NCBI GenBank assembly: GCA_964644035.1
Contig: CAZXUH010000001.1
Span: 259,712-323,711 of the forward strand
From: an uncultured Candidatus Saccharibacteria bacterium
Lineage (GTDB): Bacteria; Patescibacteriota; Minisyncoccia; Phycocordibacterales; DAORIS01
DNA length: 64,000 nt
Reading direction: 5' to 3'
Shown: positions 741 to 35,828 of the stretch, in pieces
Position numbering within the stretch: position 1 is the first letter of the stretch
How the letters are laid out: every line of letters begins with the position of its first letter
The notes under the pieces: model-generated
Told to the model about the DNA's origin: nothing
Databases searched by the model: none
Seen by the model: only the letters and a program-made list of their open reading frames with translations
Translations under genes and position numbers: made by a program

Positions 741-744
741 CTAT

Positions 745-1836: not shown

Positions 1837-1850
1837 GTTATAATTTACTT

Positions 1851-2975: not shown

Positions 2976-3212
2976 AATAGTTGACCACACCCACATTTCT
3001 ATTTCATAACTATTTTTAATGCTTGCATGGTTTTGCTGAGTTGATATTATGTACATGTATCCGATGTTCGACAGAGTCAGCAAACGATACCTCCGACTTC
3101 GGTCGGTGTGAAGACCCTTCAGGTAATTATTCTTTCGAGAATTATTACCACAAGGGTCTTTTTTTATGCCACATTTTAGCTGCGTCTCCTTTAATATTTT
3201 TGATATAATACA

Positions 3213-4538: not shown

Positions 4539-5811
4539 TACGTCCAGAAATTTTCTTTTATTTAGTTTAATACTGTGCGCAGGCATGCTTATAAATGCAC
4601 GCACCAATGCAGCTACTATCGACGAACTCAAACAGAAAATCGAAGAAAGAAACCTCATTATCAAGCAGCTCGATGCCGAGATTAGCCAGTATCAAACCCA
4701 AATTGGCGAAACAAGTAAAAAAGCTCAAACGCTTCAAAATACCCTCAATACGCTCAATGCTTCTATTAAAAAACTCGGTGCAGAGCTTTCTAAAACAGAA
4801 AACAATCTCGTAAAAACAACATACACCATTACGGCTCTTGATACAGAAATCGATCAGAAAGAAGAGAATATTGATACACGAAAAGAAGCTCTCAAAACGC
4901 TTATCAAGCGACGTTCTCAAGAAGAAGATATGTCAATGATACAGTCTATGCTCATGTACAAAACACTCAGCGAAGCCTGGAACTATCTGAGCGAATCATG
5001 GATGATACAAGATTCTATCAATGACAACCTCGAAGATATTAGGGATACAAAAGATAAACTCGAGACAGATAAAATATCCAGAGAAACTCAGAAGAAACAG
5101 CTTGAGACGTATAAATCTACACTCAATGACCAGAAAAAACTTGTTGAAATAAGTCAGAAAGATCAGAACAATCTTTTGAAAGCGACAAAAAATACTGAAG
5201 CAACGTATAAAAAAGAATTGGCAGCTCGTCAGGCAAAAAAAGAAGCCTTTGAAAAAGAATTACGACAGTTTGAATCGGACCTTAGTATCGCCATCGATCC
5301 AAGCAAGATTCCTACTTTCGGTGGTGGACTTTTGTCTTGGCCACTTGAAAAACGCACAATTACGCAAACATTCGGTGACACGGAATTCTCTCGTACACAC
5401 GCTCAAGCCTATAGTGGAAAAGGTCACAATGGTATTGATATAGCCAGCCCTGTCGGCTCACCAATCATGTCAGCTGCCGAAGGTACAGTGATAGGAGCAG
5501 GAGACACTGATACAGCCTGTCCTGGGGCTTCCTACGGCAAATGGGTGCTTATACAGCACCCTAATGGCCTTTCAACGCTCTATGCCCACCTGTCCCTTAT
5601 AAAAGTCTCTCAAGGTCAGACTGTAGCACGTGGCGAACTCCTTGGATATATAGGTATGACAGGATATACAACAGGTCCACACCTCCACTTCACCGTCTAT
5701 GCATCTGAAGGTGTCAAAGTCCTCAGCAGAAAAAGTATAGCCTGCGGCTCGACGTACACCATGCCGATTGCCGATCTTAAAGCATATCTCAATCCACTCT
5801 TGTATTTGTAA
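4531..5811 (+). CDS. M23 (LytM) peptidase with an N-terminal signal peptide and a long coiled coil (EnvC-like murein hydrolase activator/hydrolase).
   Basis: Coiled-coil N-terminal half. The C-terminus carries 'HNGIDIA', 'HLHF' and the 'GYIGMTGYTTGPHLHF' M23 signature. Confidence 0.75.
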   Translation: MRSTSRNFLLFSLILCAGMLINARTNAATIDELKQKIEERNLIIKQLDAEISQYQTQIGETSKKAQTLQNTLNTLNASIKKLGAELSKTENNLVKTTYTITALDTEIDQKEENIDTRKEALKTLIKRRSQEEDMSMIQSMLMYKTLSEAWNYLSESWMIQDSINDNLEDIRDTKDKLETDKISRETQKKQLETYKSTLNDQKKLVEISQKDQNNLLKATKNTEATYKKELAARQAKKEAFEKELRQFESDLSIAIDPSKIPTFGGGLLSWPLEKRTITQTFGDTEFSRTHAQAYSGKGHNGIDIASPVGSPIMSAAEGTVIGAGDTDTACPGASYGKWVLIQHPNGLSTLYAHLSLIKVSQGQTVARGELLGYIGMTGYTTGPHLHFTVYASEGVKVLSRKSIACGSTYTMPIADLKAYLNPLLYL

Positions 5812-7906: not shown

Positions 7907-8770
7907 CTAGAGGGTGTACTTCTTCAAGACAGACAATGCTTCATTCCTATTCAACTTAATGTATTGGAACGCCGCACGTGGATTTTCTTCTGAATGTCCT
8001 AGTACAACCTGTAATTCTTTCACATCTGCACCATTCGCTAACATGGTGTGAGCTTTATAATGTCTGAAACTATGTGGTGTAAGCCTAGACAGTATACCGG
8101 CCTTTTTTCTCAATATCTCAATCCACCTTTCAACCGATCGTGGCGTGATTCTTTTTTTAATCCTGTAACTAATGAGAAGCGGATTCGTCTTTGTCAGGTT
8201 TTGCCTGATCTCAAGATATTTCAACAACATCTCATGTGTCTCTTTCCCCCACATTACATACCTCTCACTTCCATTTTTTTTCGTAACGACAACGCAATAA
8301 TTTTTGTCCTTATGAATATCGGAAATATTCAAGTCTGTGAGTTCGGAAACTCTCATGCCAGTATCTTTCATCATGTACAACGAAAGTTTTTTTAGAAGAT
8401 CATCATATGTCCAATCGTTAAGATATTTACACATTCTGTTTATATGATCTTCTTCTGCTACCGGCATTTTCTTTGGAAGGAACTTTGGAACCTTAATCAT
8501 GAAAGGATCGATCACTGTCTCCCCTTCTGACTTAAGGAACTTTATGAAGTCTCTGACAATGGTCACAATATACGAGACGTTTGACGGGGCGTACTTCGTG
8601 CGGATGCCGACTTGAAACTCCGACAGATTTGATAACCTTAGTTTTGCGACCTGAATGTCGCCAAAGTACTCTACGAGCTTTTTCAAGTTCGGTCGATACG
8701 AGTATGCTGCACGATTTGTATGGGCTGATTTCCATGTCAGATACTTCTCTATTGCGACAGTTAGTTGCAT
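7907..8770 (-). CDS. int: Phage tyrosine integrase/recombinase.
   Basis: C-terminal catalytic region 'HSFRHYKAHTMLANGADVKELQVVLGHSEENPRAAFQYIKL' carries the H-x-x-R, LGHS and catalytic Tyr pattern. It is adjacent to the left boundary repeat. Confidence 0.85.
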   Translation of the reverse strand: MQLTVAIEKYLTWKSAHTNRAAYSYRPNLKKLVEYFGDIQVAKLRLSNLSEFQVGIRTKYAPSNVSYIVTIVRDFIKFLKSEGETVIDPFMIKVPKFLPKKMPVAEEDHINRMCKYLNDWTYDDLLKKLSLYMMKDTGMRVSELTDLNISDIHKDKNYCVVVTKKNGSERYVMWGKETHEMLLKYLEIRQNLTKTNPLLISYRIKKRITPRSVERWIEILRKKAGILSRLTPHSFRHYKAHTMLANGADVKELQVVLGHSEENPRAAFQYIKLNRNEALSVLKKYTL

Positions 8771-9976: not shown

Positions 9977-10201
9977 TTAGTGTAGTTGCCCTGCGCAACC
10001 TTGCAGGCAATATTCCTTGACCCAATCAGGAAGTGCCTTGTAGCCTTCCCGATGCCATAGACGGTTTAATGCAGCCGCCCGATCTGCGGGATTTGGGAAT
10101 CCCTGACCTCTTGAGGCTTCATAGAACACCTGTTCGATGTACTTGAAGCCAAGACGTTTTGCACAGTCTGTGACTGTGTCTTGGACGATGTCTGGGAGCA
10201 A
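9977..10201 (-). CDS. Hypothetical protein.
   Basis: 74-aa ORF with balanced composition; an overlapping alternative-frame ORF (10066–10281) was judged less likely. Confidence 0.2.
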   Translation of the reverse strand: MLPDIVQDTVTDCAKRLGFKYIEQVFYEASRGQGFPNPADRAAALNRLWHREGYKALPDWVKEYCLQGCAGQLH

Positions 10202-10363
10202 GTTCCACCTCCAAAGGCGTTAGCCCTGTAAGAAGATGACTGTCGAGCAACGTATCTACGAGATACGTCAATCTTATTCATGTGACCTCCTAAAAAAGAA
10301 CTATCTACTTGTGAACGTCACAAGCAGGGTATAAGGGAATGGCGGCATTCCCCTACTCTCTGC

Positions 10364-11374
10364 CTACGAGTACAATTCTTTTAACTTTGCGGTTGTCTTT
10401 GGTCCGACTTGTCCTGTCTGTTCAAAGCCATACTTTTTCTGAAACTTTTTAACTGATTCAATAGTGATGCTTCCGTATACTCCACGACTTGTGACATTTG
10501 CTGGAAACACACCTTCATATGTAAGACAGTCTTGAAGTGATGCTGTGGAGCCTGTGTAGACTGGTTTAATATTTATGGGAGCCGCATCAAACTTGAAGTT
10601 GATTGGATACCTTGCGAGATAGCAACGGGCTTGGAAGAAATCACGATCGATAAGCTTCTGGTATATATTCTCCTGATCCGCTGAATCTTCGATCAAGATG
10701 TATTTCTTGTTGTCGTAGGTAAAAGCGTCGATAGCGGTAACATCATGTCCCCAAGGCTTATTTGTACCTGCAACTCTAGGATATTGAGTACCAAAGAACT
10801 CGTTTGGGCCGAACTGGAACCAAAGCTTGATCCCCTTCCCTGTCTTCTCAATAGTTGATGCGACAGTTTCAAAATCAATTGGCATCTCTACCCAATTTTC
10901 TGGAATAGCGAAAGCGTCTGCTGCATCTCTGTGGTATTGTTCGATTTTTGTTGAGTTGATCTGCGCCTCCGTCATACCTTCGCAAGGAAGCAGGTCGTAT
11001 AGAAGTGCTCCAGTGTTAGCAAGTCTGGCAATATCACTAAAAACCATACCTTCACTTGGTTTGTTAGCTCTCTGTGTGTAGAAAAATGCTGGAGAAAACT
11101 TAACAATTCTATCAGTCTTTAAGAAGTAAAGAATAGTGCATAGCTTTGATGTGCCATACGCAACACAAGCAGACGATGAGAATTGGTACTGGTATGGAAA
11201 CTTTCTCCACTGACTAGGTTGTTTTGCTTTAAACTCAGGTATGGAAGCAGATGCCACAGCTTCATTAAATTGGTGTACTGTAGATAGTTCCTCGCCCAAC
11301 CCTAAAACACCGAGAAATCTTTCTTTCTCTTTAGTCTTCGTTAAAAGATTTTTTATTGATTTAAATATATTCAT
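10364..11374 (-). CDS. Endolysin with a cysteine peptidase domain (CHAP/NlpC-P60/papain-like) and a C-terminal peptidoglycan-binding domain.
   Basis: Candidate nucleophile 'SSACVAYG' and His 'WGHDVTAID'. The C-terminal 'KKFQKKYGFEQTGQVGPKTTAKLKEL' matches the PG_binding_1 pattern. Next to a holin-like gene. Confidence 0.6.
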   Translation of the reverse strand: MNIFKSIKNLLTKTKEKERFLGVLGLGEELSTVHQFNEAVASASIPEFKAKQPSQWRKFPYQYQFSSSACVAYGTSKLCTILYFLKTDRIVKFSPAFFYTQRANKPSEGMVFSDIARLANTGALLYDLLPCEGMTEAQINSTKIEQYHRDAADAFAIPENWVEMPIDFETVASTIEKTGKGIKLWFQFGPNEFFGTQYPRVAGTNKPWGHDVTAIDAFTYDNKKYILIEDSADQENIYQKLIDRDFFQARCYLARYPINFKFDAAPINIKPVYTGSTASLQDCLTYEGVFPANVTSRGVYGSITIESVKKFQKKYGFEQTGQVGPKTTAKLKELYS

Positions 11375-11376
11375 AT

Positions 11377-11604
11377 TTATTGACTTAACCTACTTTTAAT
11401 CCACTGGAGGTCTGTTTGCATTTGACTTAGCTGAACTAGGATTTGAATATTTTGTGCAGTCTGTGCTTCTAATTTTGTTTCCAAAACTCCGGTCCGAACT
11501 TCAATATTTTTAATAGTGCTTTGAATGTTTGCCCATGCAGTAATAAAGGCGACCCCTAACGCTATTAATTGCCAATATTTTTGTAGAGATTTTACTTGTT
11601 CCAT
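11377..11604 (-). CDS. Holin/spanin-like small membrane protein.
   Basis: 75 aa with one TM segment followed by a coiled coil, immediately upstream of the endolysin. Confidence 0.4.
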   Translation of the reverse strand: MEQVKSLQKYWQLIALGVAFITAWANIQSTIKNIEVRTGVLETKLEAQTAQNIQILVQLSQMQTDLQWIKSRLSQ

Positions 11605-11605
11605 T

Positions 11606-13828
11606 TTAAATACCTGTTGTGTCTATTAATATCCATGCTGAACCATTCCAATAATAGAGAGGCATTTCTTGCCAACCACTTGAAACCGGTGATGGTGATG
11701 AACTTGGTGATACTGAGGATGACGGCGAAACTGAGCTGCTAGGACTATGTGAAACTGATGAACTTACCGATGACGAAACTGATGTAGATGGTGACACCGA
11801 TGAACTTGGAGAATGACTTATTGAACTAGATACACTGGACGACGCCGAACTTGAGACAGAAGAAGAAATAGAAGTACTTGGGCTAGTGCTGCTCGAAACT
11901 GATGACGAGACACTTGAAGATACAGAGCCTGCGATCTGGTAGCAAACCTTCATTGAAATGGAATCCACTTGGACTGTACCTGCTGGGTTTGCGTAATCTA
12001 CATTGACCTCAACTCCCTCAATAACTGCATCAACTGGTATAGAGAAACCAAAGTCAGTCATTGCTAGGTACTTACCAGTTCCCATGTTTCCGATGATGCT
12101 CCATCCAAAACCGAAGTTGCTTGCATTTATATCAGCCGGTGTTAAAGAAAGACCCCATAATTCTGTTGGTCCCCCGTACACCCTAGGACTTCCAGCTCCT
12201 GAAATAGCTACACCTGTATGTAGACTTGTACCCGAAATACTTCCTCCTACTATTAATTTTGCGCTATTATCAGTTGTTGATCCTGAAGCCCTTACTGCAC
12301 ATGTAGTTGAGGTTGATCCATTATCAGTTTTTGCATCATTTGGATTCAACCAATCGATAGTTCCGACTGTTGCATCATTTGCGGCTACGTTAGGAAATTG
12401 AAAGTTTGTGCATACAGACACTACGGAAGATGGTGACGGACTTACACTACTCGATACGCTAGTCGATGGAGAAACTGAGGAACTTGTCGAACTGCTGACC
12501 GAAGATGAAGTTGAGCTTGATACCGACGTTGACGGACTTACTGATGAGGATACCGAAGACGAAACGGAAGAACTAACACTTGATGAAACTGAGGTCGAGG
12601 GACTTACTGATGAACTTACAGAAGAAGAAACTGATGATGACACCGACGATGAAACTGAACTTGAAACCGAGGTCGAGGCTGATCCTGCTGCATCATATGT
12701 TGCATAGATCGAGGCAGTAAATAAGTTTACACCCGCACTCATTACCCAAGGAGATTCGGGGCTAGCGTACGTGACACTGATGTCATAGTATTCTTGATCT
12801 GATGTATTGTCGTAACTTATGTAGTAGCCTCTTGTGCCTGAAATATCTGCGGGATCACCCTGAGCATTTAATATGTATTCAGTTGCATCCGAAAAAGCTT
12901 CTGAACCCATAATGAACGTTTTCCAACCAAGGGCTTCTGCTTGATCTAGTCCGGTTTGTGTTGCGATTTGTCCATGAGTTCCTGTACCACCAGAGTCCCT
13001 TTCATTCATGAAAACTTTAACGTCAACAGCAGTAGAGCCTGTATCACCCCCCAAATAAGCATCAATGGCTGTGAGAGTTCCTGCTTCTGTTGTGAGAAAT
13101 GATGTACCAAAGCGTTCGCTTTCAGCTACACCAAAGCGTTCTGCGATAGCAATTTGAAGCGCACCAATACTTGTGTATCCAAACGTAGGGTCAACTGTTA
13201 CCGGAAATACTGCTTCTTCTAGAAACTTTTGAGGTACAGTGACAGTGAGTAAATCTACATTCTCGTAAATATTCAAATCACACCATGTCCTATTCCCCTC
13301 TGCATCAACTGCCTCTGGTCTATATATATGAAAAGCTTTACCAGTTTTGTATTCTTTACCAGCAGAATTATTTATACGTCCTTTAGTTTTGTGATACACA
13401 GCATAAGAGCCAACAGTGTTCTCAGGCTGCTTGAATCGTTTGGAATCGATTTGTTCTTGAGTAAGTGGCGGCTGGTAGAAGAAATCAAGTCCTTTTGTAT
13501 TAATTGTTGCGGTTAGAACATTGTTTTCAGGTATTTGCTTGAGGACCCATTCAAACTCAAAACCACCATCTTCACCGGCTTCTGGCTTTTCGTACTGATG
13601 CACTTCGTAATCAGGCGTAATGTACTTAATTACCCCGTCAGTCTCCTCGATAGTTGCATCTGGATGTTCCTCTGCTCGAAGTGAAAAGTTTACCTCGTTG
13701 TCCCATCTTTGAATCTTTACTTGGGGTTTGAAATCAATCTGCTTGTCATCACCTATAATGATCTCAATTTTATCTTTGGGATTGGACTTTACCTCTTTTA
13801 GAAATGTTGTGTCGTTTAATTTATCCAT
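11606..13828 (-). CDS. Tail fiber/virion surface protein with two long serine-rich repeat tracts.
   Basis: 740 aa. The N-terminal globular domain is followed by (SSSVSSSVSPSTSV)n tracts in the middle and at the C-terminus, and it sits beside the LamG fiber gene. Confidence 0.55.
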   Translation of the reverse strand: MDKLNDTTFLKEVKSNPKDKIEIIIGDDKQIDFKPQVKIQRWDNEVNFSLRAEEHPDATIEETDGVIKYITPDYEVHQYEKPEAGEDGGFEFEWVLKQIPENNVLTATINTKGLDFFYQPPLTQEQIDSKRFKQPENTVGSYAVYHKTKGRINNSAGKEYKTGKAFHIYRPEAVDAEGNRTWCDLNIYENVDLLTVTVPQKFLEEAVFPVTVDPTFGYTSIGALQIAIAERFGVAESERFGTSFLTTEAGTLTAIDAYLGGDTGSTAVDVKVFMNERDSGGTGTHGQIATQTGLDQAEALGWKTFIMGSEAFSDATEYILNAQGDPADISGTRGYYISYDNTSDQEYYDISVTYASPESPWVMSAGVNLFTASIYATYDAAGSASTSVSSSVSSSVSSSVSSSVSSSVSPSTSVSSSVSSSVSSSVSSSVSPSTSVSSSTSSSVSSSTSSSVSPSTSVSSSVSPSPSSVVSVCTNFQFPNVAANDATVGTIDWLNPNDAKTDNGSTSTTCAVRASGSTTDNSAKLIVGGSISGTSLHTGVAISGAGSPRVYGGPTELWGLSLTPADINASNFGFGWSIIGNMGTGKYLAMTDFGFSIPVDAVIEGVEVNVDYANPAGTVQVDSISMKVCYQIAGSVSSSVSSSVSSSTSPSTSISSSVSSSASSSVSSSISHSPSSSVSPSTSVSSSVSSSVSHSPSSSVSPSSSVSPSSSPSPVSSGWQEMPLYYWNGSAWILIDTTGI
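11653..11905 (-). repeat. Coding tandem repeat (Ser/Val/Pro/Thr-rich tract, C-terminal) of the fiber gene.
   Basis: Nucleotide-level tandem repetition of Ser codons; likely slippage-prone. Confidence 0.6.
12418..12718 (-). repeat. Coding tandem repeat (central poly-Ser-Val tract) of the fiber gene.
   Basis: About 100 aa of SSSVSSS repeats; the antisense strand reads as an acidic DELTDE artefact ORF. Confidence 0.6.
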
Positions 13829-13829
13829 A

Positions 13830-15437
13830 TTAGTCTAGGAAAACTTTTAGAGGTGCTTTGATCCAAGTCAATCCGTTAAATCGATAAAGAGTTCCGCCAT
13901 ATAGACTTGCTGACGGTGATGAGCTGGGTGAACCAGATATAGAAGAACTCACAGAGGTTGACGGACTCACTGAGCTACTTACAGAGCTGGAAACCGAACT
14001 TGAAATACTGGATGAAACCGAGGTTGAGGGTGACACAGATGAAGACACAGAACTGCTCACAGACGAGCTTACAGAGGTCGAGGGACTCACTGATGACGAT
14101 GGTGAATGACTTATACTGCTCGATACGCTCGTTGACGGACTTACTGAACTTGAAGGTGACGAGGAGATCGAGGAAGAAACGGACGTGCTCGGTGAAGATG
14201 AAACAGAAGAAGATATAGAAGTCGATGGAGAAACTGAGCTGCTCACTGATGAGCTAACCGAACTACTTACGGATGAACTTACCGAACTTGAAACTGATGT
14301 GCTTGGTGAAACTGACGAAGATGGAGAGCTGCTGATGGATGAAGATACTGACGTTGATGGGCTAACGCTCGAAGAAACCGAACTCGACACGGAGCTAGAT
14401 ACACTGGAAGAAACAGATGTTGATGGAGAGACAGATGATGAAACGCTGGACGATACCGAGGAACTTACCGAAGTTGAAGGGCTGACAGAACTACTTGGTG
14501 AACTTGATACCGACGAAGACACGGATGAAGACACCGAGCTGGACACTGAACTTGAGACAGACGACGAGACAGAGCTGCTAACGCTTGTTGAAGGTGAAAC
14601 GGAAGAACTAACACTTGATGAAACGCTCGTACTTGGAGAAACCGAGCTTGAAGGAGAGCTACTGACCGAAGATGAAACAGAAGTTGAAGGACTGACGCTT
14701 GAACTTGGCGAAGATGATACTGAGGATGAAGGCGAACTGCTTACCGATGAAACTGCAAGTGGATATGCTAGACCAGCACCACCATTATAAAGAGATGTAA
14801 CTTCCGCATCTGAAAGTTGTCTGCTCCATATACCTACTTCGTCGATGTATGCATTCGAAAATGCGGCCAGAACGTTGTCTGATCGATCAGCACCAACAAC
14901 AAAGTTGTTAAATGTTGTTCCACTCGTACCAGCACCTGAACTGGCTTGCGTTCCTCGATTGACACCATCTGTATAACCAGTAATAGTTGATCCGTCATAT
15001 GTCAGTACCAAATGATGCCAGCCTGCCGTTCCGAGCGTAATGTTGTATATAAAATTGTCTTGAGCGACACCCTTCTTCAAACGTGAGAAGAATAGACGAC
15101 GAGTACCACCATTATGCTGATAGATAATGTAATAACCGTTTTTATTCGTAACACTTTCTTGAAATATAAAAGTCTGTTGGCTGGCCGCAATTTCAGTTCG
15201 CATCTTGACCCAGAGCGACATAGACATTGCGCCTCCTGTAATACCCATGTTTGCAGCACGTGTGAGACTCTTGTTGGTATTAGCCGTGCCAAAGTCTGCA
15301 CCATTGTTTATAAGTGCGGCAGCAAAACCAACGGTGTTGTTGTTGGTTAGTGTGAGAGCTGCGCCGGAAGAATCGGCTGGGTTGCCGCTTGATTCGTCGA
15401 GCTTATAATATGCTAATAGGTTTGTTGTTAACGCCAC
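13830..15437 (-). CDS. Tail fiber/receptor-binding protein with an N-terminal LamG (concanavalin-A-like lectin) domain and a ~300-aa serine-rich repeat.
   Basis: The N-terminus 'LLAYYKLDESSGNPADSSG...LVLTYDGSTITGYTDG...IDEVGIWSRQLSDAEVTSLY' is the LamG pattern common in phage fibers. It is followed by (SSSVSSSVSPSTSV)n. Confidence 0.65.
   Translation of the reverse strand: MALTTNLLAYYKLDESSGNPADSSGAALTLTNNNTVGFAAALINNGADFGTANTNKSLTRAANMGITGGAMSMSLWVKMRTEIAASQQTFIFQESVTNKNGYYIIYQHNGGTRRLFFSRLKKGVAQDNFIYNITLGTAGWHHLVLTYDGSTITGYTDGVNRGTQASSGAGTSGTTFNNFVVGADRSDNVLAAFSNAYIDEVGIWSRQLSDAEVTSLYNGGAGLAYPLAVSSVSSSPSSSVSSSPSSSVSPSTSVSSSVSSSPSSSVSPSTSVSSSVSSSVSPSTSVSSSVSSSVSSSVSSSVSSSVSSSVSSSPSSSVSPSTSVSSSVSSSVSSSVSPSTSVSSSVSSSVSSSVSSSVSPSTSVSSSISSSPSSSVSPSTSVSSSVSSSVSSSVSSSVSSSVSPSTSISSSVSSSPSTSVSSSISSSPSSSVSPSTSVSSSISHSPSSSVSPSTSVSSSVSSSVSSSVSPSTSVSSSISSSVSSSVSSSVSPSTSVSSSISGSPSSSPSASLYGGTLYRFNGLTWIKAPLKVFLD
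13884..14765 (-). repeat. Coding tandem repeat (about 295 aa poly-Ser-Val-Pro-Thr) within the LamG fiber gene.
   Basis: Highly repetitive Ser codons; the antisense acidic ORF 14185–14790 is an artefact of this tract. Confidence 0.6.
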
Positions 15438-16357
15438 TTTTCTATCTCAGTTTCTGTCCATCCCGTAACTGGTGAAAACTTTTCTATGAGCCATGCCAGA
15501 GGATACTTTTGTAAACTCCAGCTTCTATCTTTAAATTGATTAAGGACTGTCTTCTTGGCGTGTTCTGTTTGTCGTCCTGATATTGGATATGGGAATCCAA
15601 AATCATTTGCTGCTTTTGTTCTGAACATGTGTGCGTACCAAGTCGTGTGATTGACTACTACCCTTCCTCCTGAGAGCCATGTCTTACATGCCACCTCTAT
15701 TCCTTGAGATCCCCAAGAACCAAGAGCCTCATCACAAATATTGAGTTCCCAATATTTTTCTCTGGTCATAAGAAAACAAGAACCTTGGATACTCATTGAA
15801 TCCGTGAGATCACCTCCATACCCTTCTCGTTTGGTGTACTCATTGAAATATTGGAAGTGTGGTTCACTATCAAAGCAAAATGAATTGCTTTCTGGCCTTC
15901 TCTTGGCAATCCACACAATGTCCTTAGTCATTATCTTTCCGCACTTGTCGCACTTAGAACCTTTGTCCTGATATTTCCTTTCTCCGCACTCACAGACCCA
16001 ATCAAAGGCGTGTAGGTTTCGCATTGTAGGAACCATAGTCCAATCGTCCTGCATCTTCTCGATCAACTTCCTATCAAAGCCCTTATCGAAAGCACAATGA
16101 GCGTCTACCTTCACCACATACTTTGCTTGTGAGAGTTTGCAGGCCAAATTGGTTGCTGCTCTCTGCCCAATACTTTCAGGAAGATAGATGACGTTTACTC
16201 TTTCATGTTGAGGGATAGCTGGATTAGCCCACTGCCCATCTAGAACAACGATTACTTCTGTATCTGCTTCAATATTGGATACAATATCCTCAATCGTTCT
16301 CGCTAAAAATTCCTCGTTGCGAGCAGGAATCAGAATACTTAAATCTCTTGCTGCCAT
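15428..16357 (-). CDS. Family 2 glycosyltransferase (GT-A) with a C-terminal Cys-rich (Zn-ribbon-like) region.
   Basis: N-terminal 'LSILIPARNEE...VIVVLDGQW' GT2 signature. Paralogous to 18120–18899 (both have the 'HC[AS]F[DG]KG[FY]DR' motif). C-terminal 'CECGER...CDKCGK'. Confidence 0.65.
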   Translation of the reverse strand: MAARDLSILIPARNEEFLARTIEDIVSNIEADTEVIVVLDGQWANPAIPQHERVNVIYLPESIGQRAATNLACKLSQAKYVVKVDAHCAFDKGFDRKLIEKMQDDWTMVPTMRNLHAFDWVCECGERKYQDKGSKCDKCGKIMTKDIVWIAKRRPESNSFCFDSEPHFQYFNEYTKREGYGGDLTDSMSIQGSCFLMTREKYWELNICDEALGSWGSQGIEVACKTWLSGGRVVVNHTTWYAHMFRTKAANDFGFPYPISGRQTEHAKKTVLNQFKDRSWSLQKYPLAWLIEKFSPVTGWTETEIEKWR

Positions 16358-16899
16358 TTTGTTACATCAACGAAGTTAGAAAGAACTGTTGTGTGCGGTG
16401 TAGCTCCGGTCCAGTCGTATCGATACTTGAACTGCGAGTAGAGTTGGTCATAACCGTACTTCTGCTTTCCGTTCACACCGGCGTCATGCAAAACCACGTA
16501 ATCAGCCTTATCTTTGAAAAGAAGGGCGTCATCTCCCCTTGTTCGGGGCTTCTTCGGTGTATGGTCGATAAAGACAATACTGTAGTGTTCATTCAAGTCA
16601 GCCTTCTCAAGTTCCTTAATGTGTAGGACTTTGTGACTGAGTGTCTTGAACTTATTTGCAAAATCTAAGTAATGAAGATGTCTTTCGACGGTGATGAGAC
16701 TTCTCTTGTTCTCAAAACACATCCAGTGCAAGAGGGGTGTACTGAACATTCCAGAACCGACTTCCATAATCGTCCCCGTAGTGTTCTGGACCAGTTTCAT
16801 GAGTATTGGAAAGTGCGTGGACGTTTCCATTTCCAAGCTTGTGTGCTTGTACTTCTCATTCTTCTGCTCCCTTGATTGAAATACTCTTTTTTTACTCAT
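16339..16899 (-). CDS. Class I SAM-dependent methyltransferase (Methyltransf_24/TylF-CmcI-like O-methyltransferase).
   Basis: 'IMEVGSGMFS' glycine-rich SAM motif, 'IVFIDHT' (DGDH-like) and 'VVLHDAG'. Paralogous pattern to 38956–39537. Confidence 0.5.
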   Translation of the reverse strand: MSKKRVFQSREQKNEKYKHTSLEMETSTHFPILMKLVQNTTGTIMEVGSGMFSTPLLHWMCFENKRSLITVERHLHYLDFANKFKTLSHKVLHIKELEKADLNEHYSIVFIDHTPKKPRTRGDDALLFKDKADYVVLHDAGVNGKQKYGYDQLYSQFKYRYDWTGATPHTTVLSNFVDVTKWQQEI

Positions 16900-17572
16900 A
16901 TTTTTTAATTAATTCCCTTGCATGTCCCCAGTGGTAAAGATCGTATGCTTTTATCTGTCCAAGCCTCTTTCGTTGCGTTCTTTGCCTGTCCTCAGAAGCA
17001 TTCTCATGATTGATTTGGATGATTGAAACTTCTCCAAAGACCTCTACTGATTTCCTTTCTGTAATATTTAAATTTCTTTCGATAATCCCCCGCCCTACTT
17101 CTCCAGTGAACTCATGAGGTGTACCGTTTGGCCATTTCTCGAATCTTTCTTCTAGGGCTTCGATCAGTAATTTCCTTGGAGCGATCAATGAGCAGTTACT
17201 CTTTCTGTTTCGCCATGAGTAGATGGGTTCTCCCCATGTAAATAGAGCAAAGCGATTCTGGTCATAGGCAAATTCATCTAAATTTGGCCTGTAGAAGTTG
17301 AAATGATTTTCATGATACAAACAATCATCTTCTGCTGTAGCAATGAACTCGGTCGTAGCTAATTTGGCGGCTCGTAGCATCTGACGGTAAATGTTTGACA
17401 TGCCTTTTTCTCCGTCATCTAATATGTTCTGTCCGAAATCCAATGGTTTACGAGAAACACTTATGAGTGGGTAATCTCCTATTGCTGAACTCAAGACTTC
17501 TCTCTGATAGGATGAGAACTTATCGGGCATCTGTGAGGCTGTCAGATAGATCACTGTTAAGTCTTTTGCCAT
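16892..17572 (-). CDS. Hypothetical protein within the glycosylation cassette (possible GT-like).
   Basis: 226 aa with an 'EDDCLYHENHF' acidic motif and no confident family assignment. Confidence 0.3.
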   Translation of the reverse strand: MAKDLTVIYLTASQMPDKFSSYQREVLSSAIGDYPLISVSRKPLDFGQNILDDGEKGMSNIYRQMLRAAKLATTEFIATAEDDCLYHENHFNFYRPNLDEFAYDQNRFALFTWGEPIYSWRNRKSNCSLIAPRKLLIEALEERFEKWPNGTPHEFTGEVGRGIIERNLNITERKSVEVFGEVSIIQINHENASEDRQRTQRKRLGQIKAYDLYHWGHARELIKKYE

Positions 17573-18168
17573 GTGGATACAATTAAGTCGTCCTCTAGAT
17601 ACGTTGCAAACTCTCTTGTTGAGACTGTTTCCTTACCATTTGAGAATCCATCAACCGATGCATTCCAAGCGTGCATACCTCCATATCTTTTCTTTTGATC
17701 TGGTGCATGTCTGAGATATACCCAGCCACCTTTTTTGCAAACTCTTTTCATCTCCTCGATCGCCTTCTGACAATCGGGAGTGTGATCGAGTGCGTTTACA
17801 CAATGAACTATGTCGAACGTTTCATCTGGATACGTGAGATTCTCCATATCCTGATATTCAATTGGAACCAGTGGAACTTTTCCGTTATTAACCCAGAATT
17901 TCTTATATTCATCTGAGAAGATGTCGGATGCGAATATGGTCACATCTACTCCTTCACAATGATCCCCGATCGTATTAACTGGACCAGCCCCTAACTCCGC
18001 TATCACCACTTTTTTCTTGTCTCCAATTAAATATTTAAAATACTTTGGTAGTGGTGCTGGTTTGTTAAACTCTCTTTCTTTTGAACCGAACTTAACCCTG
18101 TAAAAAAACGTTGTTTTATTTATATCCGCCATTTTGGTCGTATTTCTTTCTCGTAATAGTCCCCCCAC
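17557..18168 (-). CDS. Class I SAM-dependent methyltransferase.
   Basis: Motif I 'VVIAELGAGPV' and motif 'FDIVHCVNALDH' typical of Methyltransf_11/23-like enzymes. Confidence 0.6.
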   Translation of the reverse strand: MGGLLRERNTTKMADINKTTFFYRVKFGSKEREFNKPAPLPKYFKYLIGDKKKVVIAELGAGPVNTIGDHCEGVDVTIFASDIFSDEYKKFWVNNGKVPLVPIEYQDMENLTYPDETFDIVHCVNALDHTPDCQKAIEEMKRVCKKGGWVYLRHAPDQKKRYGGMHAWNASVDGFSNGKETVSTREFATYLEDDLIVSTWQKT

Positions 18169-18906: not shown

Positions 18907-19602
18907 CTACGTTATCTGAACCCACAAATCGTGGAGTTCTGGGTTTATTGGTGCTGTTGCTGATACTGTTATACCGATCACATCTTTAAGGTGCGTCGTC
19001 CTTGATGATGGTTTGAAAATAGTTGGTTTGTCTTTGAGACTATCGTATGAAAATTTGCCATCAATCTTTTGGATGATCTGCTCTGCTGTGTCAGGGCTGC
19101 CGTCTTCCCCCTTGTCACCTTTCTCACCCTTAGGACCCTGAGGTCCTTGTGGACCTTCTGGACCTATTTCCCCGACCTGACCCTCCGGTCCCTGTTCACC
19201 TTGATCCCCTTTAGGACCAGCGACAGTTGAATCAGCTCCGGTGTCGCCCTTGTCACCCTTTTCTCCTTGTGGACCAGTGGGTCCAACTTCTCCTCGTATT
19301 CCCTGTATACCTTGCTCACCCTGCTCTCCTTTTGTTGCTTTAAGAAAACCCTCAATGAACTCAGCAGCGCTACCTGCTCGTTTGATCTCTGGTTTGATAC
19401 CATCAATAGCACCGACCACTTTGTCGGTGTTTTCGTTGTTTTGGATAAGCATCGCCTCCAAAGCTGGTTCAGGATTGTTCTTCTCGTTTTGCTGGACAAT
19501 AGTCTCTAGAAGACCGTTGGTTTCGTCGGTTTTCTGACTGTTGGAGGTTAGAATCGCTTCTAGTACTGGCTCTAGGTTGTTTTCTTGGTCTTGTTCAGGC
19601 AC
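18907..19602 (-). CDS. Collagen-like (Gly-X-Y repeat) tail fiber protein.
   Basis: About 100 aa of uninterrupted G-X-Y triplets ('GEQGEQGIQGIRGEVGPTGPQGEKGDKGDTG...') flanked by non-collagen N- and C-terminal domains. Confidence 0.6.
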   Translation of the reverse strand: MPEQDQENNLEPVLEAILTSNSQKTDETNGLLETIVQQNEKNNPEPALEAMLIQNNENTDKVVGAIDGIKPEIKRAGSAAEFIEGFLKATKGEQGEQGIQGIRGEVGPTGPQGEKGDKGDTGADSTVAGPKGDQGEQGPEGQVGEIGPEGPQGPQGPKGEKGDKGEDGSPDTAEQIIQKIDGKFSYDSLKDKPTIFKPSSRTTHLKDVIGITVSATAPINPELHDLWVQIT

Positions 19603-19640
19603 GTAATGAATCCCCGTTCATTACCCCGATTTATATCTAT

Positions 19641-19657
19641 TAATTATACCACATTTT
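19641..19657 (-). promoter_or_regulatory. Conserved phage extended -10 promoter, copy 1 (upstream of the collagen-fiber/glycosylation/fiber/lysis operon).
   Basis: Minus-strand reading is AAAATGTGGTATAATTA; the -10 hexamer corresponds to + coordinates 19643–19648. Confidence 0.55.
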
Positions 19658-19674
19658 CGAGTTTTTTGCCTCTA

Positions 19675-19866
19675 CTACCCATAGGGATTGACTGAAAATA
19701 AGTAGATGGAGTAAAATACGAGACAAGGTAGCACTGAGCGGAAGCTTGGGGTTACATTAGTAGGCCCATCAAGGGCATAATCAATTTTTTTATGACATTC
19801 ATAGCAAAATTGAGCAGTGCCATCTTGTGCCAGAGTGACTTGCCTTTTGCACAATAGGCTCGACAT
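19675..19866 (-). CDS. Hypothetical small ORF downstream of promoter copy 2.
   Basis: 63 aa with a 'CYECHK' motif and weak coding evidence. Confidence 0.15.
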   Translation of the reverse strand: MSSLLCKRQVTLAQDGTAQFCYECHKKIDYALDGPTNVTPSFRSVLPCLVFYSIYLFSVNPYG

Positions 19867-19995
19867 TAAGGATTTACTCTGGCCTGCGATATTGTGCCGA
19901 TGCTGAGCAACAGTAGGTGTACAAACTCAGAGCAACTCATCAAGTTGCCGAGAGGGGTCATGCAGATCACCACCAAAAATACAGGGGCTAGGTAC

Positions 19996-20046
19996 AAGAC
20001 AAAAGCCGTTAGAGTTGATACCTCTAGCGGCCTTTTGTTTTTTTGC
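19996..20046. terminator. Strong bidirectional intrinsic terminator hairpin.
   Basis: 10-bp stem GCCGTTAGAG/CTCTAGCGGC (one G·U pair) with a 7-nt loop. It is followed by CTTTTGTTTTTTT on + and preceded by an A-run, which reads as a T-run on the minus strand. Confidence 0.6.
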
Positions 20047-20075
20047 GGAAGCTTATTTTTGTAACGTTACACATA

Positions 20076-20092
20076 TAATTATACCATATTGA
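20076..20092 (-). promoter_or_regulatory. Conserved phage extended -10 promoter, copy 2.
   Basis: Minus-strand reading is ATATGGTATAATTATAT (-10 = + 20078–20083). It fires toward the terminator hairpin about 35 nt downstream. A plus-strand TATAAT (20075–20080) overlaps it divergently. Confidence 0.5.
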
Positions 20093-20112
20093 CTTATGGC
20101 GTGTAAGAGCTA

Positions 20113-20322
20113 TTGTACATACATATGGATAACTTTTTAAAACTACACTGGTTCAAAGTCGGTATCCTTATACTACTTGTCGGTATTCTTGGTCAACTTC
20201 TTTTTATAAATATGAAAATGGAATCTGCCTATCAAATGCAGGAGTATTTCATGCAACGTCAGGACACCAATATTGGTGCTTTAGTTGAGTACATTTTACA
20301 ATTTGAAGAACCATCAATATGA
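20113..20322 (+). CDS. Small membrane protein; one of only two plus-strand ORFs inside the prophage (moron candidate).
   Basis: 69 aa with one strong TM helix ('VGILILLVGILGQLLFI'). Confidence 0.35.
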   Translation: MYIHMDNFLKLHWFKVGILILLVGILGQLLFINMKMESAYQMQEYFMQRQDTNIGALVEYILQFEEPSI

Positions 20323-20471
20323 AAATGCTTATACATGTAGAGGGTTGGATACTCATGCTTTGTCCGATTATAGTAATTGTTGCAGTCATATTAGACTTTA
20401 GTTCAACAAATCTTATCCTAGCCTGCATAGCCCTACTTGTTTGGAAAATAGGAAATAACGCTTTAGATTGA
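20319..20471 (+). CDS. Small (50-aa) two-TM membrane protein overlapping the previous ORF by ATGA.
   Basis: Hand-translated as MKMLIHVEGWILMLCPIIVIVAVILDFSSTNLILACIALLVWKIGNNALD. It lies below the track's 60-aa cut-off. Confidence 0.25.
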   Translation: MKMLIHVEGWILMLCPIIVIVAVILDFSSTNLILACIALLVWKIGNNALD

Positions 20472-20472
20472 T

Positions 20473-23181
20473 TTATCTAAATAACTTCTTCTTGTCGTCA
20501 AAAGTGATCGATTCGTCCTTGTTGTGAATATAGTAAGAAGCACCATTCGTAATATCTTTAAATGTCTGCGAACCCAATTCAGCAAGTAACTTCTTAGTGA
20601 TGGCTTCTATCTCCTCAGCTTTCTTACCTCCCTTACCAGCCATGTATATATTATATTGCTTACCAGCATAGGCTTGGTATTGGTTCTTTTCACTAAGAAT
20701 CTGAGCAAGGGTTCGTTTGGTTCCCCTCTTTGAATGTTCCCTGATTCGGTTGAGAGCTGTGCCAAGAATGACACGTGCTTCCAATTCCTTCTTCTCTGTT
20801 GGACGATTACTAATTTCACCGTAGAGAATAGGTAGGAGAATATCCAAATCAGACTGAGTTATTTTAAGGTCCTGATCTTTGTATTTAGTTTGGACTACTG
20901 TGTTCTTTGGAAGGTCTACCTTCTTTGATCCTGTAGCTTGGATAGGTACTTCTGCCTGAGGTTTAGCTGGAAGGGTTTGAGGAGTACTTTCAGAAATCTT
21001 AGTGTCAGAAGCTGTGTACTTCTCCTTGCTTGGAAGCTGTGCAACTAAAGCTGCTGCACCCACTAGACCACCCGCACCCACAACAAACTTCTTAGAAGCT
21101 GAACCTTTCTGTAGGTTGACTTTATCTAGCTGTGATGGTATTTTATTTGGAACGCCACGTTCAGTATTACTAGGTAATTTATTATTTATGGAATTAGCAT
21201 TTTCTATAGCACTCGGAATATTATTGGTTCCAGTCTTGTTGCTTGTTATTGGTTTACTATTCAATATAGTCCTATCGCCTTTTGTGTTTGTAACTTGGCT
21301 TTTTGATAAGTTTATTGGTTTTTTAGCTTCAAGGCTTCCTAAAGCAGAGGCTCCTGTTGACGCAGAGGGTCCGGAAATAAACTCTTCTAATTTCTGAATC
21401 ATCTGTGTTTCAGGTAATTCTTTTTCTATTAACTCTTGAATCTTCTTTAGATTCTTTTCAAGAATAGCTTCTAGATCGAGTGCATTCATGGTTTTATAAC
21501 CCTGACCTCTAGGAATCATCTGTTCAACAAATCCTTTTATACCGCCACCAGTAATTTTATTAAGAATACTTGAGACGTTTCTACCTAATTTTTCGAATAG
21601 ACCCCTTTCAATTATCTTCTGTTGGAGATTATTTACACCTTCTTCTACCTTCTTAACAAGATCTCTGGTCCTAATGAGGTTTGATATTTCTTTGTCCGTA
21701 GCTTCATATATATCGTTTCCAAACAAATTACGAGCTGTACTCTTTAAACCTGCACGTGTATTTTCAAACGACTGGGCATTTACACTCGTAAACGGCTCAC
21801 CGGTCTTGCTGAAAGCTTTTGTACTAAACTCTGTGCCATGCAAACGAGCAAGATCATTCACTTCTTGAATAGTAATGCCGTTAGTTTTCGCATTATTCTT
21901 TAATTGATTTATTTTTGCTTGTCCAATCGGATCATTTGTCTTTTTATATAATTCCTCAAGTTGATTTATTGCATCATCAACATAATTATGTGAAACAACT
22001 TCCTCACCAACCTTTGTATCAAACTTTAGGTTATCAAGTAGTATTTTTTCCTTCTTAGTTGAAAGAACTTCATCAAGTTTTGTCTTTAATGTAGTAGCTT
22101 TATCGTTTAAAGCCTTTGTGAGGTCTTTATAGGTCTTTACACCATCAAAATCTATGTTTGATAATGCTTTCTTAGCACGAGGAATATCTGATATTTTTCC
22201 TTGAGTAATTTTTCCAACCAAATCATCAAATTGATTGACGGCTTTTGTAGCTCTCTTTTGCATCAAACTTGAAACTTTATTAGTACCCTCTGCAACAGCA
22301 GGGATAGCTACACCTGTTAGTGTCCCTAAGCCCGGAATAAGAGCTTTTTTACCAGTCCTGTCCTCACCTCTAGCACCTTGAAGTCCCTGCGCCACGTCAG
22401 ATGTGTAACCAATGGCTGCACCTCCTAATACCTTTTTAGCAGCACCTCCTTTACCACCAGCAATACTTGCGATTTTACCCAATTCCGGAGAGATAGCTGT
22501 AGCTGTTTTAATAACTGCACTACTCTTTTTGGGTATTACTTTGAAAGATTGAGCACCTTTTACAGCTTTTCCATAAGCTCCAGCCGTAAGAACATCTAGT
22601 GCAGTGCCACCAATTTCACCACCAACTTTTAAGTTTGATTTTTTAGTTGCAGATAAGTTCTCGTCAATAAATTTATTTACATCAAGTGATTCACCTGTGA
22701 GTTGGTTATATGCTTTTTCTAATCTTGAGGTATCCTTACCATTTTTTTTATTTTCCCTGATCCTTTTAATAAGATTCACTTTTATATCTTCCTGTCCCTG
22801 CTGAGCAGCAGAAAGTGCAGGAAGCGTATTCCTTGCAGCCAAAGACTCACCAATAGTTTTACCAAGTCCTACTTCCGATGATGCAATATTACCTACAAAT
22901 GCTTTACCGAAATTAGCAGCCATACCCCCAAAAGAGTTGGCTTTTTTAGATTCTTTTGCAGATGCTGCCGCTTCATTTTGAAGCTTTAATATCTTAGCTT
23001 TCCTATCCTCAGGCTGATTGTATTTAAATTCTTTAGACTCGATAGAAGCCTCTGGTTTCGTTCCATATTTAGCTTCGTACTCAGCACGTGTCATCTGGAT
23101 CGGCTCTGATTTCACAGGCTGAATAGGCGGAGGTGTTCCGTATTTAGCCTCGTATTCTGCTCTCGTCATTTGTATAGCCAT
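20473..23181 (-). CDS. Large internal virion/tape-measure-like protein with a C-terminal cell-wall hydrolase (SleB/Hydrolase_2-like) domain.
   Basis: 902 aa, Lys/Ala-rich with a central Gly-rich hydrophobic segment. The N-terminal motif 'IQMTRAEYEAKYGT' is duplicated. The C-terminal 'ELEARVILGTALNRIREH...QYQAYAGKQY' resembles the EARGE...VIxNR...QF pattern of SleB-type hydrolases. Positionally analogous to T7 gp16. Confidence 0.4.
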   Translation of the reverse strand: MAIQMTRAEYEAKYGTPPPIQPVKSEPIQMTRAEYEAKYGTKPEASIESKEFKYNQPEDRKAKILKLQNEAAASAKESKKANSFGGMAANFGKAFVGNIASSEVGLGKTIGESLAARNTLPALSAAQQGQEDIKVNLIKRIRENKKNGKDTSRLEKAYNQLTGESLDVNKFIDENLSATKKSNLKVGGEIGGTALDVLTAGAYGKAVKGAQSFKVIPKKSSAVIKTATAISPELGKIASIAGGKGGAAKKVLGGAAIGYTSDVAQGLQGARGEDRTGKKALIPGLGTLTGVAIPAVAEGTNKVSSLMQKRATKAVNQFDDLVGKITQGKISDIPRAKKALSNIDFDGVKTYKDLTKALNDKATTLKTKLDEVLSTKKEKILLDNLKFDTKVGEEVVSHNYVDDAINQLEELYKKTNDPIGQAKINQLKNNAKTNGITIQEVNDLARLHGTEFSTKAFSKTGEPFTSVNAQSFENTRAGLKSTARNLFGNDIYEATDKEISNLIRTRDLVKKVEEGVNNLQQKIIERGLFEKLGRNVSSILNKITGGGIKGFVEQMIPRGQGYKTMNALDLEAILEKNLKKIQELIEKELPETQMIQKLEEFISGPSASTGASALGSLEAKKPINLSKSQVTNTKGDRTILNSKPITSNKTGTNNIPSAIENANSINNKLPSNTERGVPNKIPSQLDKVNLQKGSASKKFVVGAGGLVGAAALVAQLPSKEKYTASDTKISESTPQTLPAKPQAEVPIQATGSKKVDLPKNTVVQTKYKDQDLKITQSDLDILLPILYGEISNRPTEKKELEARVILGTALNRIREHSKRGTKRTLAQILSEKNQYQAYAGKQYNIYMAGKGGKKAEEIEAITKKLLAELGSQTFKDITNGASYYIHNKDESITFDDKKKLFR

Positions 23182-35265: not shown

Positions 35266-35615
35266 AATGCAAGCTTGCGCATATCCTCCAAGTGCTTCTC
35301 AGTCGCTTCAAGTTTCCCTTCAAGATAGCCTTGTTTTGGTTTGATACCAATATTATTAAGAGCATCAGCAAATACTTGTAATTGATCTAGTGTCAATTCA
35401 AGCGTTGGTTTTGATACCGCCACACCACGATGAACAGTCTCGCCGTCAAGAAACTCTACCTTTTCACCTATCTCACGAAATATGTACACATCTTTAGTGA
35501 GTTTGTACCCACTGTCTACAATTTTTATGTTCCATTCATTATTGTTCATATTGTGCTGGTACTGAGAATTGAACTCAGTCTCACTGTTTGGAAAACAGTA
35601 GTGCTGCCGTAACAC
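35262..35615 (-). CDS. Hypothetical protein.
   Basis: 117-aa ORF overlapping the terL start. Confidence 0.3.
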   Translation of the reverse strand: MLRQHYCFPNSETEFNSQYQHNMNNNEWNIKIVDSGYKLTKDVYIFREIGEKVEFLDGETVHRGVAVSKPTLELTLDQLQVFADALNNIGIKPKQGYLEGKLEATEKHLEDMRKLAL

Positions 35616-35623
35616 TTCACCAA

Positions 35624-35827: not shown

Positions 35828-35828
35828 G

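Follow-up and report, generated by a model that had tools for sequence, protein, structure and literature searches.

Staphylococcal Ser-Asp repeat proteins (ClfA/B and SdrC/D/E) have a stalk with Ser at every second residue, which is modified by the adjacent SdgA/SdgB and thereby protected from proteases. In the serine-rich repeat proteins (SRRPs) of Gram-positive bacteria, linked transferases, of which the extending ones vary in number, act within the cytoplasm to glycosylate the Ser-rich repeats (PMC6973325), and among phages, mycobacteriophages are described, in the accounts that two later papers give of the original work, as encoding transferases that glycosylate the C-termini of capsid and tail-tube subunits (Freeman et al, 2023, as cited in PMC12619734 and PMC12582341). 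Here, we describe a locus of an integrated tailed phage in a stretch of 64,000 nucleotides (nt) from a contig of an uncultured Candidatus Saccharibacteria bacterium (CAZXUH010000001.1; hereafter, the window, meaning the whole stretch), in which two adjacent minus-strand genes, g1 and g2, encode three giant tracts rich in Ser, Val, Pro, and Thr (T1 in g1, and T2 and T3 in g2). Directly upstream lies a cassette of glycosyltransferase and methyltransferase genes, the relatives of which are linked with Ser-rich tracts across many uncultured phages. From these sequence comparisons, we regard it as moderately probable that cytoplasmic O-glycosylation by the cassette makes the tracts mucin-like stalks on virion fibres. 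A preliminary description of this DNA had rightly reported the two genes, the three tracts, and a LamG head in one of the genes; it overlooked the cassette, which is the best clue to the purpose of the tracts.

T1, T2, and T3 consist of 287, 93, and 89 amino acids (aa), respectively, with a Ser content of 62-66%, and no comparable tract was found in any other real gene of the window. Their period is four residues (SSSV with SPSTSV interruptions), the probability of Ser at position i+4 given Ser at position i being 0.85-0.91 and that at position i+2 being 0.71-0.74, and Pro breaks the pattern every 12-30 residues. T1 alone comprises 190 Ser, 49 Val, 23 Pro, and 13 Thr. The genes GT2b, methyltransferase, 226-aa protein, 186-aa protein, GT2a, g1, g2, holin-like protein, and endolysin follow one another in this order in a single minus-strand operon, with overlaps or with gaps of a few nt at most; the stop of GT2a and the start of g1 overlap by 10 nt, and g1 and g2 lie one base apart. 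The cassette is thus placed on one strand between the tail genes and g1, g2, and the lysis genes, and not near the integrase. The 186-aa and 226-aa proteins matched nothing in PHROG, Pfam, or NCBIfam, and the 226-aa protein had no match in the PDB either. The latter is fused to the C-terminus of the GT2a orthologue in three related loci (L003, L005, and L007), which assigns it to the same pathway as GT2a, and the GT2a open reading frame (ORF) exceeds 1,400 nt, which is long enough for such a fusion, in 42 of 80 related loci. The 226-aa protein is a putative third glycosyltransferase.

To characterize the enzymes, a profile built from eight GT2a orthologues was searched against the PDB. As a result, the best matches were the polypeptide N-acetylgalactosamine (GalNAc)-transferases T1, T9, T7, T10, T2, and T4 (E = 2e-8 to 2e-5), which ranked above most other solved transferases, and the alignment, made with segments of GalNAc-T1, spanned the region of DxH (vDAHC) as well as the Gal/GalNAc-T motif and the His that follows it. 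In GT2a, these motifs are represented by D85 and H87, by H243, and by a Gal/GalNAc-T-like series (W215 G216 ... E221 ... W227 ... G230 G231), all of which are invariant in the eight orthologues. For GT2b searched alone, 8 of 10 PDB matches were polypeptide GalNAc-transferases, over residues ~50-252. GT2a and all of its orthologues also have a Cys-x2-Cys ... Cys-x2-Cys insert in the GT-A domain (15989-16041; residues ~106-123 onward; profile positions 133-172), which is weakly similar to the zinc ribbon of ribosomal protein L37e and is not present in polypeptide GalNAc-transferases. Furthermore, neither a C-terminal ricin-B lectin domain nor an N-terminal type II membrane anchor was found in GT2a or GT2b. 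Because the phage enzymes are without the lectin domain and the membrane anchor and GT2a has the extra zinc-ribbon insert, membership in family GT27 is not claimed. Nevertheless, by sequence, GT2a and GT2b resemble protein O-GalNAc-transferases rather than lipid- or DNA-directed enzymes. Transfer of GalNAc from UDP-GalNAc to protein Ser/Thr would be their candidate reaction, to which the genomic linkage with Ser tracts described below lends indirect support.

The association between the enzyme and the tracts was examined in two sets of loci, one anchored on g2 (146 loci with the g2 N-domain, from viral contigs and metagenome-assembled genomes) and the other anchored on the enzyme (the best 80 of 474 viral stretches encoding GT2a relatives, with 57-69% identity); an ORF was counted as Ser-rich when it lay on the same strand and had at least 40 Ser-rich residues. 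In the g2-anchored set, a Ser tract was present in six of the seven loci with a GT2a orthologue, the seventh being cut off, compared with 3 of 92 loci without GT2a that have at least 5 kb upstream (p = 5e-7 by Fisher test, which ignores shared ancestry). In a neighbour-joining tree of the conserved 225 residues of the g2 family, the Ser tract and GT2a change nine and eight times, respectively, largely in the same lineages. Because the phage in the window otherwise shares almost nothing with the g2-family loci, the cassette and the tract behave as a mobile module. In the enzyme-anchored set, 63 of the 80 GT2a loci had a same-strand Ser-rich ORF, as did 45 of the 51 of those with at least 3 kb downstream, and the Ser-rich ORF started less than 100 nt from the end of GT2a in 26 loci. 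The g2 family was found in only 9 of the 63 loci, indicating that the enzyme tracks the tract and not the carrier protein. Among the 61 related loci in which the upstream DNA was long enough, 59 held two GalNAc-transferase-like ORFs.

Across these relatives, the flavour of the tract varies (SPSASLSPSAS, SASESKSAS, and SSSPSSSP), with Val being swapped for Pro, Ala, Leu, Glu, or Lys, and what stays constant is Ser at every second position. Tract length among homologues ranges from 58 to >1,000 aa. Tracts of >1,000 residues include one of 1,074 aa in a 1,715-aa ORF and one of about 1,500 aa in a 1,921-aa ORF (L003 4844-9989 and L198 14711-20474, respectively). Two distant loci of the family, L051 (8252-13249) and L085 (8571-11728), encode two or three neighbouring proteins with pure, homopolymer-like Ser/Thr tracts (~50% Thr and ~45% Ser). 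With respect to their distribution, GT2a had no match in 50,697 GenBank phage records, in which the g2 family was represented by one metagenomic relative with 28% identity, whereas a library of 1.84 billion proteins yielded 256 GT2a cluster representatives (50% identity) at E <= 1e-30, many of which were multi-transferase fusions. No account of Ser-rich tracts in phages being linked to GT27-like enzymes turned up in the literature searches. The earlier statement that such stalks are unusual for phage receptor-binding proteins holds with regard to cultured phages, from which the stalks are absent, as is the linked GT2a from the GenBank phage records, and fails for one uncultured phage group, in which they are common.

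It may be possible that the tracts are plain unglycosylated flexible linkers, acting as entropic tethers between folded modules, and that the transferases modify the host envelope in lysogeny, phage DNA, or the collagen-like protein encoded just upstream of the cassette. Ser/Pro/Thr linkers are common in modular extracellular proteins, and this explanation would accommodate loci L051 and L085, which have Ser/Thr-rich tracts and no GT2a within 10 kb, and the ~10 of 51 GT2a loci with enough flank that have no downstream Ser-rich ORF, 6 of which have none on either side. We consider it unlikely, though, because the linkage of GT2a and the Ser tract works in both directions and across unrelated carrier proteins, the enzyme and tract genes are directly adjacent and overlapping, and the enzymes are soluble, encoded in the late structural operon away from the integrase, and similar to protein O-GalNAc-transferases and not to lipid- or DNA-directed enzymes. 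The exceptional loci just mentioned nonetheless weigh against glycosylation of the tracts by the cassette, and so do several other points: the Fisher tests take no account of shared ancestry; the similarity of GT2a to GalNAc-transferases is modest (37 bits); Pfam assigns to GT2a and GT2b only the generic Glycos_transf_2 half-domain, and NCBIfam gives sub-threshold matches only; g1 and g2 match nothing in PHROG, including its tail-fibre families, and their virion location is read only from gene position and modular architecture; and the substrate of the cassette could also, or instead, be the adjacent collagen-like protein or a different molecule. That collagen-like protein is a possible further fibre component or cassette substrate.

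The tracts had also been described as being encoded by nucleotide-level tandem repeats and as slipped-strand hypervariable regions, and neither claim was borne out at the DNA level. Tandem Repeats Finder, run on 10000-17000, detected nothing beyond a single weak array of 55 nt (24-nt unit, 74% matches), and most copies in the direct-repeat families of the tract DNA are only ~60-77% identical. The longest exact repeats within T1, T2, and T3 were 16, 14, and 11 nt compared with 15.5, 12.7, and 11.3 nt in synonymous shuffles, and for lags from 6 to 48 nt, the identity between nucleotides did not differ from that in the shuffles (|z| < 1.8). The choice among synonymous codons is completely scrambled: neighbouring Ser codons are alike only to the degree expected by chance, and each of the six Ser codons occurs, with a usage flatter than that elsewhere in the phage (entropy of 2.46 vs 2.23 bits; chi-square p = 1e-8). 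The sole excess was an exact block of 29 nt common to T1 (14596-14624) and T2 (12561-12589) in the same codon frame, with 56% identical flanks, which 0 of 200 synonymous shuffles reached and which may be a small gene-conversion patch. The tract DNA is thus not tandem-repetitive, and there is therefore no substrate for slipped-strand variation in the window. A contingency-type mechanism that changes fibre length at high frequency could draw on this block, on the hugely different tract lengths among homologues, and on the ~40 of 111 related tracts with exact repeats longer than those of synonymous shuffles (up to 170 nt, in L188); the last indicate that in the group, tracts grow by duplication and then decay at synonymous sites. 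Given the shuffle-level repeats and the flattened Ser codon use in the window, we regard slippage as very improbable here. As a separate observation, in ~10 related tracts (L005 14412, L013 11095, L157 13205, L176 6171, and others), the exact repeats are shorter than those of nearly all or all synonymous shuffles while the peptide repeats are near-perfect, which hints at selection against DNA repeats. The codon scrambling represents a natural example of a long peptide repeat without DNA repeats.

The same data bear on whether the tracts could be an assembly or low-complexity artefact, for which the peptide sequence, being of low complexity, would speak. The DNA, in contrast, is of high complexity, with no exact repeat longer than 16 nt within a tract or 29 nt between tracts, and assembly collapse is therefore improbable. 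Furthermore, the reading frame is continuous from the conserved N-domains through the tracts into C-terminal motifs common to independent contigs, and the same architecture occurs in more than 60 independent contigs, so that the chance of an artefact is practically negligible. Artefacts of another kind are the two long acidic ORFs on the opposite strand of the tracts, as the preliminary description had suspected. Both are in the register made up of the third base of one sense codon and the first two bases of the next, and they are forced open because a stop codon in this register needs a sense codon starting with TA or CA, and no codon for Ser, Val, Pro, Thr, or Ile starts in this way; in the tracts, Tyr and Gln are absent and His is rare. 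Their characteristic DELTDE peptide arises because TCN, AGY, and GTN read antisense as Asp/Glu, Leu, and Thr, respectively.

With regard to the carrier proteins, the N-terminus of g1, MALTTNLLAYYKLDESSGN, agrees with its homologues, and its Laminin_G_3 match scored 77.5 bits (cut-off, 27.6), covering profile positions 12-150 of 151. The LamG domain has 381 homologues; most of the best 120 of the 381 are 230-245 aa long and none of 14 inspected has a Ser tract, indicating that T1 is an insertion. For g2, PHROG, Pfam, and NCBIfam searches returned nothing. Its N-domain belongs to a family of >1,500 unnamed metagenomic phage proteins, mostly of 380-420 aa, in which residues 1-225 are highly conserved and the variable residues 226-380, with SIYATY at their end, are followed by diverse C-terminal extensions. 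A fold search with the N-domain gave only weak matches, to phage tail proteins and jelly rolls; those to the SdrG, ClfB, and Srr binding regions were likewise weak (TM 0.15-0.26) and do not indicate homology. Only eight homologues and no PDB fold match were found for the g2 middle domain, which is, together with P0241, circularly permuted relative to the standalone homologues of ~180 aa (P0242-P0248): the segment KYLAMTDFGFSIPVDAVIEGVEV is C-terminal in the g2 middle domain and N-terminal in the standalone homologues. As a side observation, the g2-family gene is followed in several related loci by a conserved protein of ~530 aa (L002 4452-6050, L003 12811-14416, L005 15903-17496, L010 4840-6472, and L042 1936-3637), which has an N-terminal Ser-x tract of 70-80 aa of its own and a conserved C-terminus (...IFRxRTYFD).

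Both g1 and g2 end with one copy of the motif [YK][YR][WF]xGxxW[VI], which recurs after Ser tracts elsewhere, sometimes as three copies in tandem. A triple copy in the relative L176 matched DUF2510 (PF10708) at 24.9 bits (cut-off, 24; E = 1.7e-5), and the single copies of g1 and g2 had no match to DUF2510 in Pfam or to any PDB entry. A likeness of the C-terminal tail to the foldon of T4 fibritin was considered and, as there was no PDB match, dropped in favour of the weak resemblance to DUF2510 repeats. The tail motif is one reason to ask whether the tracts fold as a regular fibre, such as a beta-solenoid or, with the C-terminal hairpin as its nucleus, a trimeric polar-zipper rod, with any glycosylation being secondary. 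The strict period of four with Val at one position and the conserved short aromatic motif after the tract would fit such a fold, as would the tandem motif copies in relatives, which resemble DUF2510 hairpins. The interruption by Pro would not, and the replacement of Val in relatives by Pro, Ala, Leu, Glu, or Lys, with only alternating Ser being kept, is better explained by an acceptor or spacer than by a packed core; we therefore judge a regular fibrous fold to be distinctly unlikely.

The naming of g1 and g2 as fibre genes stands in part. They close the late structural operon just before the holin-like gene and the endolysin gene, and in the unrelated contig L009, the g2-family gene is likewise located after head genes and before an endolysin gene. 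In view of this operon-end position and of the conserved N-terminal 225 aa of g2 combined with variable, modular C-terminal parts, g1 and g2 may plausibly act as fibres or in receptor binding; the lack of any PHROG tail-fibre match and the weakness of the fold matches do not favour it.

Taken together, the following mechanism is suggested for glycosylation by the cassette. g1 and g2 would be fibre-like proteins on the virion surface of the integrated tailed phage, and their Ser-rich tracts would serve as acceptors for O-glycosylation by the upstream cassette of the same late operon, which would supply two polypeptide-GalNAc-transferase-like GT-A enzymes, a probable third transferase, an S-adenosylmethionine (SAM)-dependent methyltransferase, and one unknown protein. 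No transmembrane segment or signal peptide was detected in any cassette enzyme or in g1 and g2, the N-termini of which are polar (maximum Kyte-Doolittle(19) <=1.16), and for this reason glycosylation would precede virion assembly and occur in the host cytoplasm. A dense coat of glycans, which may be methylated, on ~326 Ser/Thr sites would then stiffen and protect the tracts and make them extended mucin-like stalks, with a length of ~70-100 nm in T1 and of ~20-30 nm in T2 and in T3. With one end of each protein presumably attached to the virion, the stalks may hold out the folded modules, which comprise the LamG and g2 middle domains and the short aromatic hairpins at the C-termini. In a broader form, which is possible but doubtful, a large group of uncultured tailed phages would have a mucin-type O-glycosylation system of its own, with GT27-like initiators, extenders, sugar methyltransferases, and portable Ser-rich acceptors that can be inserted in any surface protein to give "bottle-brush" fibres, and the eukaryotic polypeptide GalNAc-transferases would have in the phage enzymes a sister lineage from prokaryotic viruses or a possible source.

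The window is a segment of a bacterial chromosome in which the phage is integrated between host genes at both ends, with nearly all phage genes on the minus strand, and the coordinates of the features are given in the table below. As a guess, the labels of the metagenome-assembled genomes with related loci may point to a CPR/Patescibacteria host. The 75-aa holin-like gene and the endolysin-like gene mark the end of the structural operon. A megablast search of window positions 9-24 kb against GenBank phages gave no match, and look-ups by exact sequence revealed no copy of the g2 or GT2a product, of the host M23 peptidase, or of the 75-aa protein; only the host DnaB was on record. Between the gene for a 902-aa protein and the collagen-like gene, 870 nt (19603-20472) hold no ORF of >70 aa and contain two minus-strand promoter-like sites (~20141-20078) and, on the plus strand, a strong hairpin with a T-run after it (20005-20031); promoter and terminator scans were at background level only and were not used as evidence. 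The 902-aa protein (20473-23181) has a duplicated N-terminal motif (IQMTRAEYEAKYGT, twice), a C-terminal region that looks by eye like a cell-wall hydrolase, and no family match. The prophage encodes tRNA-Gly(TCC) and tRNA-Asp(GTC) at 35553-35900, just upstream of the terminase gene, and no tRNA-Ser, although the tracts hold 304 Ser codons. On the host side, a 665-aa protein (61779-63776) contains two Big_7 Ig-like domains and CBM_4_9 carbohydrate-binding modules.

Table. Positions of the host, prophage, cassette, and tract features within the 64,000-nt window.
Feature	Position	Strand	Remarks
MraY, FtsW, MurG, GluRS, M23 peptidase	12-5811		Host genes, one flank
Integrase	7907-8770		Prophage gene
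75-aa protein and endolysin-like protein	10364-11604	-	75-aa protein: one hydrophobic segment, holin/XhlA-like (weak evidence); endolysin-like protein: PG_binding_1
g2, 740 aa	11606-13828	-	N-domain, T2, middle domain, T3, C-terminal tail
g2 C-terminal tail, 21 aa	11609-11671	-	...GWQEMPLYYWNGSAWILIDTTGI; motif also ends Ser tracts of L001 and L013
T3, 89 aa	11672-11938	-	g2 residues 631-719; Ser-rich
g2 middle domain, 158 aa	11939-12412	-	g2 residues 473-630; beta-rich; AlphaFold2 (AF2) pLDDT 73 (mediocre model)
Antisense acidic ORF	12408-12707	+	Register artefact
T2, 93 aa	12413-12691	-	g2 residues 380-472; Ser-rich
g2 N-domain	12689-13828	-	g2 residues 1-380; two beta-sandwich domains; AF2 pLDDT 94.3
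g1, 535 aa	13830-15437	-	LamG domain, T1, 23-aa C-terminal tail; GTG start
g1 C-terminal tail	13833-13901	-	SLYGGTLYRFNGLTWIKAPLKVFLD; one copy of the aromatic-Gly-Trp hairpin-like motif [YK][YR][WF]xGxxW[VI]
T1, 287 aa	13902-14762	-	g1 residues 226-512; 66% Ser; units SSSV, SPSTSV; codons scrambled
Antisense acidic ORF (DELTDE)	14185-14790	+	Register artefact
Laminin_G_3 (concanavalin-A-like) domain	14799-15248	-	g1 residues 64-213; Pfam PF13385, E = 1.6e-21
GT2a, soluble GT-A glycosyltransferase, 309 aa	15428-16357	-	Pfam Glycos_transf_2
186-aa cassette protein	16339-16899	-	Recurs in 24/80 GT2a loci
226-aa cassette protein	16892-17572	-	Conserved E81-x-D83 motif
SAM-dependent methyltransferase	17557-18168	-	Pfam Methyltransf_11, E = 3.3e-14
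GT2b, second soluble GT-A glycosyltransferase, 259 aa	18120-18899	-	GT2a paralogue; Pfam Glycos_transf_2
Collagen-like (G-x-y) protein	18907-19602	-	Heads the gene string; Pfam Collagen, E = 3.2e-12; PHROG tail-fibre families
Tail-fibre-like gene	24690-26234		Prophage gene
Large terminase	33787-35265		Prophage gene
S41 peptidase, CysRS, DnaB	50-57 kb		Host genes, other flank

If glycosylation of the tracts by the cassette is correct, virion glycosylation is not peculiar to actinobacteriophages and represents a modular strategy that is widespread among uncultured phages (the enzyme is encoded in 474 viral contigs; 256 clusters), and a GalNAc-transferase-like pair together with an alternating-Ser tract would provide a sequence rule for recognizing glycosylated phage surface proteins. 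As small, soluble, bacterial-type proteins with a possible capacity to O-glycosylate peptides rich in Ser, the enzymes would be of interest to biotechnology, and they would also be relevant to how mucin-type glycosylation, hitherto regarded as eukaryotic, arose. Sugar-coated, mucin-like fibres such as this phage probably builds have not been described for cultured phages.

Each of the known systems resembles this locus in part. The Ser-Asp repeat proteins of staphylococci are, unlike the proteins encoded here, wall-anchored bacterial adhesins served by GT4-type enzymes. The SRRPs (GspB, Fap1, Srr1/2, and PsrP) come close in that long alternating-Ser tracts flank a folded binding region (BR), an arrangement of SRR1-BR-SRR2 that is echoed by the tract-domain-tract arrangement of g2, and in that the transferases are encoded in the same locus and act in the cytoplasm, as is predicted here. 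They differ in having an aSec signal peptide and an LPXTG anchor (PMC6973325), neither of which was found in g1 or g2, and in depending on the priming pair GtfA/GtfB (GT4 plus DUF1975) and on SecA2, SecY2, and Asp genes (PMC6973325), which are not among the neighbouring genes here; this locus has GT-A, GalNAc-transferase-like enzymes instead, and its carrier is a phage structural operon and not a bacterial adhesin locus. As for the virion glycosylation of mycobacteriophages, as far as it is set out in the papers citing it, phage transferases act on the phage's own structural proteins, which is predicted here for transferases encoded within the structural operon; the targets there are the C-termini of capsid and tail-tube subunits, whereas here giant dedicated Ser-rich tracts in fibre-like proteins are the predicted acceptors. 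Phage tail fibres and receptor-binding proteins with collagen-like or low-complexity shafts share with g1 and g2 the location at the end of the late operon beside the lysis genes, the conserved N-terminal part, and the swapped distal modules, and a collagen-like gene belongs to the gene string here; g1 and g2, however, match no known tail-fibre family, and their shaft is poly-Ser and not collagen, coiled-coil, or beta-helix. Finally, the mucin-type O-glycosylation of animals and some protists (CAZy GT27) provides the best solved relatives of GT2a and GT2b, with the DxH, the downstream His, and the Gal/GalNAc-T motif being conserved, and its substrates are long tandem-repeat tracts rich in Ser, Thr, and Pro; the phage enzymes, which match at 37 bits only, differ from it in being without a ricin-B lectin domain or type II anchor, in having a zinc-ribbon insert, and in their cytoplasmic context.

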